From Vicinamibacterales bacterium (GTDB lineage Bacteria > Acidobacteriota > Vicinamibacteria > Vicinamibacterales > UBA8438), in NCBI GenBank assembly GCA_965207675.1, contig CBDBMY010000006.1, forward strand, positions 134,983 to 198,982: a stretch of 64,000 bases of DNA. Direction: 5' to 3'. Shown in pieces: positions 15,642-17,779 of the stretch. Every line of letters begins with the position of its first letter. Position 1 is the first letter of the stretch. The position numbers and the translations under genes were made by a program. A model generated the notes under the pieces. The model worked only from the letters and a program-made list of their open reading frames with translations. It did not search any database and was not told the DNA's origin.

Positions 15642-17147
15642 GTGCTCACGCGCCTCCAGGTAGACGGCTTCAAGAACCTCGATCGAATAGATGTACGACT
15701 GGGCCCTTTCACCTGCGTCGCCGGCCCCAACGGCGTCGGCAAGTCCAACCTGTTCGACGCCATCTCGTTCCTCGCCACGCTCGCAGACAAGCCTCTGGTC
15801 GAAGCCGCCTCGACCGTGCGGGGGGGTGACTCCCGACGAGGCGACGTCTGGAGCCTCTTCCGGCGCGCCGGCGGCCGCGTGGCCGGAACGATGGAGTTCG
15901 CCGCCGAGTTCCTGATCTCGACAGAGGGCGAGGACGAGCTCGGTCAGGCTGCCGAGGCGTCGATGACGTTCCTCCGGTACGAGCTGGAGCTGCGTCATCG
16001 AGAGGACTCCACCATTCGGACGATGGGCGCGCTGGAGATCGCCCGAGAGCGCATGGTGCACATAAGGAAGTCCGAAGCGAAGAGCCGACTCGGCTTTCCC
16101 CACAAGAAGGCCTGGCGAGACTCCGTCGTCACCGGTCGCCGCACCAGCGCCTACATCTCGACGGAAACCGAAAGAGGCGAGGCCGTCGTCTCGCTGCACG
16201 CGGACAGCAAGGCCGGCCTGGGCGGCGGACGTCCACGTCGCGTTCCCGCCGCCAGCCTGCCGCGCACCATGTTGTCGTCCGTCAACAACGCGGCGGAGCA
16301 TCGAACTTTGGTGCTCGCTCGTCAGGAGATGGTGGCGTGGACGCAGCTCCAACTGGAGCCCTCGGCTCTCCGGGCGCCCGACGAGTTCACGGCGCCCCGC
16401 AGCATGGGGCCGAACGGAGCCCATCTGCCGGCGACGCTGTACGACCTCGCCCAGGCCGCCCAACGAAGTCGTCCCGGCGGAGATCGGGACGTCTATGCGC
16501 GAGTCGCCAACCGGCTCTCGGAGCTCGTCGAGAACGTCCGGAGCGTCGGCGTCGACGTCGACGACAAGCGACAGTTGCTGAGCATCGTGATGACGGACCT
16601 CCAGGACACCGAGCACGTCGCCAGCGCCCTGTCCGACGGCACGCTGCGATTTCTCGCCCTGACCGTCATGGAATCCGATCCCGGGAGCAGGCGTCTGCTC
16701 TGCCTGGAGGAGCCCGAGAACGGAATGCACCCGCTGCGCATCTCGGCCGTCATCGAGCTGCTGCGCGAGCTCGCGGTCGATGTCGACGAGCCCGTCGATG
16801 CCGACAACCCGCTTCGACAGGTCATCATCAACACGCACTCGCCGTCGGTGGTGGCCTGCGTTCCGGACGACGCACTGCTCATGGCCCACATCGCGCGCGG
16901 CGGCGAGGCGGAGGCATCGCGACTGACCATACGTCACCTGCCCGATACGTGGCGCGTCCACGACGGCTCCGACGAGCTGGCGGTGACGCGCGGTGACCTG
17001 TTGGCATACTTGAACCCCCTGGAGGTCCTCGATGAGGAAGACGACACTCCACGACCCGCGCGCGCGGCAACCAGGGTCATGCACAGAAAGGACCTCCGGC
17101 AGTTCGAACTCCCGCTTGCGCCTGCCGGGCACGGGTCTGAACCATGA
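15642..17147 (+). CDS. ABC/SMC-head-type ATPase (AAA_15/AAA_21-like), candidate defence ATPase
   Basis: GTG start. The N-terminus MLTRLQVDGFKNL...GPNGVGKSNLFDAI carries Walker A. Also present are the signature-like LSDGTLRFLAL, Walker B/D-loop LLCLEEPENGMHP, and H-loop INTHSP. Confidence 0.8.
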   Translation: MLTRLQVDGFKNLDRIDVRLGPFTCVAGPNGVGKSNLFDAISFLATLADKPLVEAASTVRGGDSRRGDVWSLFRRAGGRVAGTMEFAAEFLISTEGEDELGQAAEASMTFLRYELELRHREDSTIRTMGALEIARERMVHIRKSEAKSRLGFPHKKAWRDSVVTGRRTSAYISTETERGEAVVSLHADSKAGLGGGRPRRVPAASLPRTMLSSVNNAAEHRTLVLARQEMVAWTQLQLEPSALRAPDEFTAPRSMGPNGAHLPATLYDLAQAAQRSRPGGDRDVYARVANRLSELVENVRSVGVDVDDKRQLLSIVMTDLQDTEHVASALSDGTLRFLALTVMESDPGSRRLLCLEEPENGMHPLRISAVIELLRELAVDVDEPVDADNPLRQVIINTHSPSVVACVPDDALLMAHIARGGEAEASRLTIRHLPDTWRVHDGSDELAVTRGDLLAYLNPLEVLDEEDDTPRPARAATRVMHRKDLRQFELPLAPAGHGSEP

Positions 17148-17779
17148 TGCTGCGGGCGACGCTGGTTACGGACGGGGCCTCTGACAGGGTACTCGAGCCA
17201 ATCCTCCGGTGGCTGATGAGACAGCTGACGGCCGAGGCGTTCGAGATCCGTTGGGCCGATCTCAGGGGACTCCGTGTGAAGCCCCGGGGTCTGGCCCAGA
17301 AGCTGGCCGTCGCAGTCCAGGAGTACCCCTGTCGACTTCTGTTCGTACACCGGGATGCGGAGGGACAAGACCCGCAACGCCGTTACGAGGAGATACGCGA
17401 GGCGGCCGACAGTACGACGTGCAGTCATGTTTGCGTCGTGCCGGTGAGAATGCAGGAAGCGTGGCTCCTGCACGACGAGGCGGCGCTTCGCGAGGCGGCG
17501 GATCGCCCGTCCGGCACCGGCGACCTCCGGCTGCCGCCGTCCCATCGGTGGGAGCGTCTGCCAGACCCGAAGAAGGTCCTTCATGACGCGCTGCGCGCCG
17601 CCAACGGCGCGACGGGCAGGCGTGCGAAGAGCTTCACGCCGAAACGCGCGGCGCACCGCCTGGCCGACCTGATCACGGACTGGAGGCCGTTGCGGAGCCT
17701 GGCGGCATTCAACCGGCTGGAAGCGGAGACCAGGAGCGCTCTCGAGCGTCTTGGCCTGCAGACGATCGGGGCTGACTGA
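17144..17779 (+). CDS. DUF4276-like protein (TOPRIM-like acidic motifs), partner of the upstream ATPase
   Basis: Its ATG overlaps the ATPase TGA (ATGA at 17144-17147). TDGASD, FVHRDAEG and VVPVRMQEAWLLHDE resemble my recollection of DUF4276. Confidence 0.55.
   Translation: MMLRATLVTDGASDRVLEPILRWLMRQLTAEAFEIRWADLRGLRVKPRGLAQKLAVAVQEYPCRLLFVHRDAEGQDPQRRYEEIREAADSTTCSHVCVVPVRMQEAWLLHDEAALREAADRPSGTGDLRLPPSHRWERLPDPKKVLHDALRAANGATGRRAKSFTPKRAAHRLADLITDWRPLRSLAAFNRLEAETRSALERLGLQTIGAD

Follow-up and report, generated by a model that had tools for sequence, protein, structure and literature searches.

PARIS consists of the ABC ATPase AriA and of AriB, a Toprim tRNase of the DUF4435 type, and the same logic of an ABC ATPase working with a nuclease of the Toprim superfamily is found in AbiL, OLD and Gabija. 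A further combination of this kind, HEC-01 (Hma-embedded candidate 01), was catalogued in PADLOC-DB v2 by Payne et al. and described as an ABC ATPase with a TOPRIM-like partner that carries an OLD-like metal site (bioRxiv 10.1101/2024.01.29.577857). In environmental metagenomes, HEC-01 is reported to be one of the commonest types of candidate defence (PMC12881386), but the two published tests of its activity disagree. Here, we analyze a stretch of 64,000 nt from a Vicinamibacterales bacterium (Acidobacteriota; contig CBDBMY010000006.1), called the window in what follows, with all positions given in its coordinates (Table 1), and we focus on a cassette of two overlapping genes, an ATPase gene (A) and a gene for a small partner protein (B). 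This cassette is a further member of the catalogued candidate family HEC-01 and no new kind of system; it is quite probably a stand-alone two-gene defence module of that type, and its function is most likely that of an ATPase-gated nuclease in phage defence. Its main value lies in the fact that one and the same chromosomal site is found occupied, empty, divergent and decayed among close Vicinamibacterales, which amounts to a clean natural experiment, and in the delineation of a large DUF4276-like clade below the reach of Pfam.

In PADLOC, searched together with its candidate models, A matches HEC-01A (PDLC04184) with an E-value of 5.1e-103, its residues 1-410 aligning with profile positions 1-397 of 464, and B matches HEC-01B (PDLC04210) over the full length of the model (E-value 1.2e-27, residues 3-205 against positions 4-214 of 217). 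The layout is that of HEC-01 as well, namely an ABC ATPase gene and, behind it, the gene of a small TOPRIM-like or DUF4276-like protein, with the B match adjacent to the ATPase match, on the same strand and overlapping it by 4 nt. An original prediction for this locus, made by a model from the DNA letters, had called both open reading frames (ORFs), their ATGA overlap and the motifs listed in Table 1, all of which proved real when coordinates and translations were checked. Its view that the combination of an ATPase with DUF4276 is experimentally uncharacterised is, on the other hand, out of date: HEC-01 is a PADLOC candidate that has been tested in two studies, and a DUF4276 homologue, Mad4, is reported as part of MADS (PMC12065111). 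That said, the window copy differs from HEC-01 as first found in several respects. It stands alone between housekeeping genes, instead of being embedded in Hma, its host belongs to an uncultured lineage of Vicinamibacterales, its B protein belongs to a clade below the Pfam threshold for DUF4276, and the C-terminal 90 or so residues of A lie outside the match to the HEC-01A model.

How does the locus compare with the other systems named above? Like PARIS, it combines an ABC ATPase of the AAA_15/21 kind with a separate, putatively Toprim-superfamily effector, and A matches AriA models at 6.5e-27. Unlike in PARIS, however, the AriA match covers only residues 321-405 of A, i.e. the C-terminal ATPase lobe, and B has no DUF4435/AriB match in Pfam or PADLOC and falls short of the length of AriB (35 kDa) by approximately 100 residues; in other words, the pairing of an AriA-type ATPase with a DUF4435 AriB partner by which PARIS is recognized is not seen in A and B. 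Still, PARIS likely provides a working analogy for the locus, with a sensor ATPase acting as a scaffold for a releasable nuclease. The likeness to the Mad3/Mad4 pair of MADS is of a different sort, as the alignment of A with NCBIfam MAD3 runs over the full length (E-value 2.7e-39; PADLOC mad3, 5.5e-24) and as the partner is of the DUF4276 type, which is also the case for Mad4 (PMC12065111). Unlike in MADS, A scores 135.5 bits against a MAD3 cutoff of 420, and neither a methyltransferase nor any other mad gene lies nearby. With AbiL, OLD and Gabija the locus would share the general logic of an ABC ATPase plus a Toprim-superfamily nuclease, and A gives weak PADLOC matches to AbiLi (2.8e-14), Old (7.8e-13) and GajA (3e-12), all of them far behind HEC-01A. 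The RloB partner that identifies AbiL is, however, not matched by B in Pfam or PADLOC, and in class 1 OLD and GajA the ATPase and the Toprim domain are fused, whereas here the candidate nuclease is encoded by a separate gene and B has no TOPRIM_OLD match.

The A protein itself is an SMC-head-type (structural maintenance of chromosomes) ABC ATPase with all of its catalytic motifs intact, just as had been predicted. It scores well above the Pfam cutoffs for both AAA_21 (E-value 2e-26; 94.2 bits against a cutoff of 27) and AAA_15 (1e-14; 55.2 bits against 32.1), its N-terminus matches Pfam SMC_N, and the residues of the Walker A, signature, Walker B and H-loop motifs are invariant across 55 homologues. 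The Pfam search revealed no additional domain and no fused C-terminal nuclease, which also bears out what had been claimed. Using the same 55 homologues, AlphaFold2 (AF2) yields a model of A with a predicted local distance difference test score (pLDDT) of 78.7 and a predicted template modelling score (pTM) of 0.80, for which Foldseek returns PtuA from Septu and retrons, as well as the heads of SMC1/SMC4 and of Rad50 (probability 1.00, E-values of about 1e-11 to 1e-9). The closest solved folds are PtuA of Septu and PtuA of the retron Ec78 type (E-values of 6e-12 to 1e-10). However, sequence identity between PtuA and A is only about 10-13%, and in Septu the partner of PtuA is an HNH nuclease, PtuB.

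Judging by its sequence, B is a divergent relative of DUF4276 and no formal member of that Pfam family. Namely, its own match to DUF4276 (PF14103) is confined to residues 66-122 and reaches only 16.8 bits (E-value 0.0087), yet DUF4276 is matched by 14 of 53 close and by 79 of 134 diverse members of the B family, with a best E-value of 8e-8, and is the sole recurrent Pfam match among the members sampled. The identification of B as DUF4276 in the original prediction, therefore, stands at the level of the family, but not for B itself. The family is large, with 1311 matches in a 90%-clustered database and 2016 clusters at 50% identity, and many such ATPase partners, forming a large clade, escape the DUF4276 model of Pfam. 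Searches of NCBIfam and PHROGs gave no model and no family, respectively, for B. In the AF2 model of B (pLDDT 90.4, pTM 0.86), a beta-alpha-beta-alpha-beta-alpha-beta core spanning residues 3-98 is followed by a helical C-terminal half; according to DSSP, the four strands of the core comprise residues 3-8, 33-37, 65-69 and 94-98, and the intervening helices residues 12-28, 50-60 and 77-88. Conservation was evaluated over 134 representatives with 38-52% identity, in which D/E10, G11, D14, H69, R70, D71, E/D73, R80, E83, E105, W107 and K143 are invariant or nearly so. In particular, position 10 is D in 119 and E in 15 of the sequences, D71 is invariant, position 73 is E in 119 and D in 13, and E105 is kept in 133 of the 134. 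These acidic residues follow strands 1, 3 and 4 of the model. As far as a predicted structure can tell, such positions are compatible with those at which Toprim enzymes bind metal, and the order of the secondary structure elements is compatible with a Toprim fold, too, the residues representing a variant form in which the canonical E and DxD residues are not matched exactly. The Toprim assignment of B rests on this compatibility of motif and topology and on published assignments, in which DUF4276 and RloB are placed as novel members of the Toprim superfamily (PMC12065111) and HEC-01B is reported to share the metal site of BpOLD (bioRxiv 10.1101/2024.01.29.577857).

What might such a pair do? 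If PARIS, OLD, Gabija and Septu are taken as a guide, A and B would form a complex in which an oligomer of A holds or regulates B. The ATPase would sense a phage-derived trigger, and ATP binding or hydrolysis by A would then release or activate B, which would cleave tRNA, other RNA or DNA by means of a metal held by D10, D71, E73 and E105. Phage replication would come to a halt and the infection would be aborted, probably at the expense of the infected cell. We give this specific gated-nuclease mechanism roughly an even chance of being correct. The residues on which it would turn are defined by conservation, namely K34 and E357 in A and the four acidic residues just listed in B. A somewhat different view would be that the effectors of the B family form a class of their own, which differs in chemistry or substrate from the known Toprim nucleases (those of PARIS, OLD and Gabija), in which case the stand-alone HEC-01 clade would represent a mechanistically distinct form of ATPase-gated immunity. 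Behind this view stand the approximately 2000 clusters at 50% identity, the invariant HRD-x-E, R80, W107 and K143, the sub-threshold Pfam scores, and the fact that no solved structural relative was detected; we consider it rather unlikely.

Several points weigh against reading the locus as an ATPase-gated Toprim nuclease that acts in phage defence. As for B, its DUF4276 score falls short of the gathering threshold of 30.2 bits, a Foldseek search of its model against PDB and BFVD places no TOPRIM protein in the top 50, and hhalign of the B family against P2 Old gives a probability of just 0.2, although a single-sequence target makes this a weak test. As for activity, Payne et al. saw no protection of E. 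coli by their HEC-01 representative against a subset of the BASEL collection and classic phages (bioRxiv 10.1101/2024.01.29.577857), and both published activity tests used homologues other than the window locus. Finally, the cassette sits amid metabolic genes in the window, outside any defence island, and it is rare on plasmids and phages, with almost no carriers in the plasmid and phage collections searched; this near-absence leaves plasmid or phage vectors unsupported.

In the light of the fold comparisons, one should ask whether B may not be a Toprim protein at all, but another flavodoxin-like enzyme, such as a TIR-like NADase or a nucleotide-processing enzyme, so that ATPase-gated defence would be retained with a different effector chemistry. 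Indeed, the best Foldseek matches of B (E-value 4.5e-3, TM-score about 0.3) are to generic flavodoxin-like three-layer alpha/beta folds, and these generic folds include the ThsB TIR domain (9b7d_C, E-value 0.17), nucleoside 2-deoxyribosyltransferases and the catalytic domain of ExoVII; within BFVD, a primase comes at rank 33 and an RloB-like protein at rank 38 (E-value 0.37). Pfam TIR_2 is weakly matched by B (E-value 0.11) and by one of 134 family members at 0.0013. What is more, fold and profile searches produced no TOPRIM match, and hidden Markov model profiles of the B family (alignments A1 and A2) gave nothing meaningful against PDB sequences. However, DUF4276 is matched by 79 members of the same family set, as opposed to a single one for TIR_2, the conserved acidic residues behind strands 1 (D/E), 3 (D-x-E/D) and 4 are placed as in the Toprim pattern, in a variant form, and published structural analyses put both DUF4276 (PMC12065111) and HEC-01B (bioRxiv 10.1101/2024.01.29.577857) in Toprim. 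Taking both sides into account, we regard a non-Toprim B as decidedly unlikely. The claim that B is TOPRIM-derived thus fares unevenly: Foldseek and hhalign lend it no match, but the conserved acidic residues, the compatible order of secondary structure and the published assignments speak for it.

The absence of protection by one HEC-01 representative (bioRxiv 10.1101/2024.01.29.577857) would also fit a reading of the pair as a toxin-antitoxin or addiction module of the selfish kind, or as a generic stress module, that plays no part against phages. The Pfam label of AAA_21, "putative AbiEii toxin, Type IV TA system", and the compact, translationally coupled and horizontally mobile character of the pair point in the same direction. 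Against this, A and B match models derived from genes embedded in defence systems, a different HEC-01 representative, from a cold seep, made E. coli B resist one or more of the phages T4, T5 and T7 (PMC12881386), some relatives adjoin restriction-modification genes and other ABC-ATPase defence pairs, and the cassette is rare on plasmids, which are the usual home of addiction modules. An addiction or stress module without a role against phages is, in our view, quite improbable, and phage defence remains the preferred function.

The two genes are kept together over a wide phylogenetic range. Among 14 species-representative loci, which span Acidobacteriota (Vicinamibacterales and Bryobacterales), Cyanobacteria, Actinomycetota, Rhodothermales, Anaerolineales and Polyangiaceae, there are 13 in which A immediately precedes B. 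A 4-nt ATGA or GTGA overlap was computed for 11 of 16 loci from several phyla, the remaining loci having a gap of at most 5 nt, and inspection shows a GTGA overlap in L015, too (related loci are designated by L numbers). Such a conserved stop/start overlap implies translational coupling of A and B and upholds the two-gene coupled architecture that had been predicted. Pairwise ratios of non-synonymous to synonymous substitution rates are 0.08-0.15 for A and 0.12-0.27 for B, and these low values, along with the conserved pairing and overlap, indicate that the two genes are kept by selection as a coupled unit and support an autonomous function. This is relevant for the possibility that the pair is an orphan Mad3/Mad4-like sub-module of MADS or Hma, inactive without its methylase and helicase partners. 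The end-to-end alignment of A with MAD3 (2.7e-39) and mad3 (5.5e-24), the DUF4276 homology of Mad4 (PMC12065111) and the fact that HEC-01 was first found embedded in Hma would fit such an origin. However, A reaches only 135 of the 420 bits needed for MAD3, B matches no NCBIfam model, neither the window nor most annotated neighbourhoods have an adjoining methyltransferase or helicase, and purifying selection on both genes together with stand-alone pairing across phyla favours autonomy, all of which renders an inactive orphan very improbable.

Elsewhere, the pair has other neighbours. One relative (L016) has it beside HsdM/HsdS of a type I restriction-modification system and another AAA_21 pair, and in L017 and L020 it lies beside transposases. 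The AAA_21 pair of L016, at 4330-5912, consists of a 353-aa AAA_21 protein and a 174-aa partner near the HEC-01 copy. A pair of RloB and AAA_21 genes, AbiL-like, occurs in L019 at 17879-19742, about 7 kb downstream of the HEC-01 copy there. In a Bryobacterales metagenome-assembled genome (MAG; L007, 8658-10608), both A and B show apparent frameshifts, reflecting either a pseudogene or an assembly error.

The states of the insertion site in the window's own clade were established by mapping the flanking genes and the cassette with tblastn, and by blastn and the comparison of junction sequences among relatives. The gene upstream of the cassette encodes an S9 peptidase and the one downstream a LamG/DMFA2_C protein, and orthologues of both were retrieved from many Vicinamibacterales species. 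The relatives without the insert (Table 1) have a compact empty site (...GACCAGGAG / CTTCAGTGATG), at which the S9 peptidase gene ends in a stop codon that overlaps the start of the next gene (CAGTGATG); from this overlap, the two flanking genes are translationally coupled there, and the insertion uncouples both. For L023 and L084, which are empty, the flanking proteins are 95-98% identical to those of the window, i.e. these two are at least as close to it as L001, which carries the cassette with A and B 98% identical to the window copies. In L051, L025 and L035, the site is likewise empty, with a repeat-rich spacer of 230-330 bp. Among the occupied sites, the L019 cassette has 88% DNA identity to that of the window, and in a Vicinamibacteria MAG (L004/L077, 6449-7082) B is apparently frameshifted near residue 170, as a pseudogene or through an assembly error. 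A divergent allele at the same S9/DMFA junction in L040 (6397-8901) has 77.5% DNA identity (83% for A and 74% for B) with unrelated non-coding flanks, which suggests that the cassette was captured independently, or its allele replaced, at a hotspot. Finally, decayed copies are seen in L032 (residues 1-463 of A and 152-204 of B), in L039 (two A fragments) and in L005 (a B fragment only). The core conserved among cassettes, 15553-17829, comprises the 89-bp leader, A, B and approximately 50 bp 3' of B.

Base composition provides an independent view of the same locus. Namely, the G+C content of the cassette is 67%, below the 72-73% of the flanking genes and the window mean of 70.5%; the lower G+C that had been noted is thus genuine, but its value is not the estimated 60% or so. 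A clearer signal comes from G+C at third codon positions, which is 0.825 in A and 0.797 in B, compared with 0.94 +/- 0.03 in 21 confident host genes of the window, and this gap indicates foreign codon usage of both genes. There is good support for an accessory cassette acquired by horizontal transfer, as opposed to a core locus. Presence and absence between flanks that are 95-98% identical, decayed copies, a patchy distribution over phyla and codon usage foreign to the host cannot be reconciled with a core function, and a housekeeping ATPase-nuclease for DNA repair or chromosome maintenance, comparable to RecF/SbcCD or to the archaeal OLD-family Cran1 with its cell-cycle role, is therefore barely credible, even though A resembles SMC, Rad50 and RecF heads, the window neighbours are metabolic genes and at least one OLD-family ATPase is reported to have a non-defence role (PMC12796447). 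Since the B family is related to DUF4276 and the locus is accessory, neither of the two findings that the original prediction had named as fatal to it (a second ORF without a DUF4276 or TOPRIM match, or a core locus detached from mobile and defence regions) was made.

How did this cassette reach its site? Neither an integrase nor a transposase is encoded in the insert. A single entry of the cassette by illegitimate recombination, at the AGGAG microhomology, is probable, and homologous recombination across the conserved flanking genes would probably account for its later spread or loss. Less probably, the precise AGGAG-flanked insertion between coupled genes could reflect site-specific capture of cassettes that lack mobility genes. 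Two relatives, L027 (19166-20347) and L031 (15235-15750), have an empty S9/DMFA site and a homologue of A with 83-87% identity (partial in L031) some 4-8 kb past the DMFA gene, from which it follows that the cassette occupies second sites in the clade.

Table 1. Positions of the HEC-01-type cassette, its motifs, its junctions and nearby repeats in the window.
Feature	Position	Strand	Description or basis
Gene A, ABC ATPase, HEC-01A type	15642..17147	+	GTG start; 501 aa, 54.9 kDa, pI 5.7
Gene B, DUF4276-related, HEC-01B type, putative metal-dependent nuclease effector	17144..17779	+	ATG start; 211 aa, 23.9 kDa, pI 9.6
ATGA stop/start overlap of A and B, 4 nt	17144..17147	+	ORF coordinates
Walker A GPNGVGKS, aa 28-35 of A	15723..15746	+	G28, N30, G31, G33, K34 and S35 invariant in 55 homologues
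ABC signature LSDGT, aa 330-334 of A	16629..16643	+	Motif located; alignment of 55 homologues
Walker B / D-loop region LLCLEEPENGMHP, aa 352-364 of A	16695..16733	+	Motif located; homologue alignment
H-loop NTHSP, aa 397-401 of A	16830..16844	+	Motif located; homologue alignment
Motifs of B: TDGASD (aa 9-14), FVHRDAEG (aa 67-74), VPVRMQEAWLLHDE (aa 99-112)	within 17144..17779	+	Located in translation
Conserved leader 5' of gene A, 89 bp	15553..15641	+	Kept in every cassette-bearing allele, including decayed ones
Perfect hairpin 3' of gene B, 9-bp stem	17880..17909	+	Folding and sequence inspection; T-run absent
Pair of near-identical 48-bp tandem repeats, both forming hairpins	17957..18044	+	Between gene B and the downstream gene
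Left AGGAG, 5-bp direct repeat in last codons of S9 peptidase gene; left junction of insert	15219..15223	+	Window departs from empty-site relatives after 15223
Insert, 2855 bp, missing from L023, L084, L030, L026, L033 and L024	15224..18078	+	blastn and junctions
Right AGGAG, right junction of insert; Shine-Dalgarno of LamG/DMFA2_C gene	18079..18083	+	Junction comparison
Two 80-bp REP-like tandem units, 93% identical, each a hairpin	15237..15392	+	Repeat search and folding
REP-like copies	259-360, 15244-15342, 26872-26908; weaker 20484, 39967, 52043		Core search of window

With regard to the non-coding parts of the cassette, the leader is presumed to contain the promoter and ribosome-binding region of gene A, a function that we infer from its position and conservation, and a sigma-70 consensus scan of the cassette, leader included, found no promoter. 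The perfect 9-bp hairpin downstream of B, which had been noticed previously, is real and is a possible transcript end, though without a T-tract; a scan of the cassette for intrinsic terminators found none. The two 48-bp repeats that follow it have no further copies within the window. A start of the LamG/DMFA2_C gene at 17885 was rejected, the true start being at 18089/18092 according to the empty-site relatives and the AGGAG Shine-Dalgarno. Downstream of this gene there is a major facilitator superfamily transporter gene, and an MR_MLE gene lies nearby as well.

The original prediction further held that two REP (repetitive extragenic palindromic) units bracket the cassette upstream. The units are real, and the first of them forms a strong hairpin (-54 kcal/mol, z = -5.3), but as boundaries of the cassette they were rejected, given that they recur elsewhere in the window and that their number among cassette-bearing relatives varies between none and two. 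Namely, the S9/DMFA site has no unit in L019, L077 and L032, one in L001 and two in the window. The REP core GAACGGCGCGGACTCCTGG has 10 matches in the window, where 0.1 would be expected by chance, and at least five of these 10 copies directly follow gene ends; this recurrence indicates a repeat that is dispersed genome-wide, independently of the cassette.

Farther along the window, a low-GC island at 52000-56500 (0.60-0.64, compared with a window mean of 0.705) encodes a Pycsar system, with two plus-strand ORFs at 52534-53352 and 53217-54011. The cyclase is matched by PycC (PADLOC, 2e-19) and by Pfam Guanylate_cyc (4e-8), and the effector by PycTM (PADLOC, 1.2e-22; Pfam PycTM, 4e-13). Three unannotated ORFs on the minus strand come next, at 54320-56414, and the island is flanked by genes for an AbgT transporter and a DUF1552 protein.

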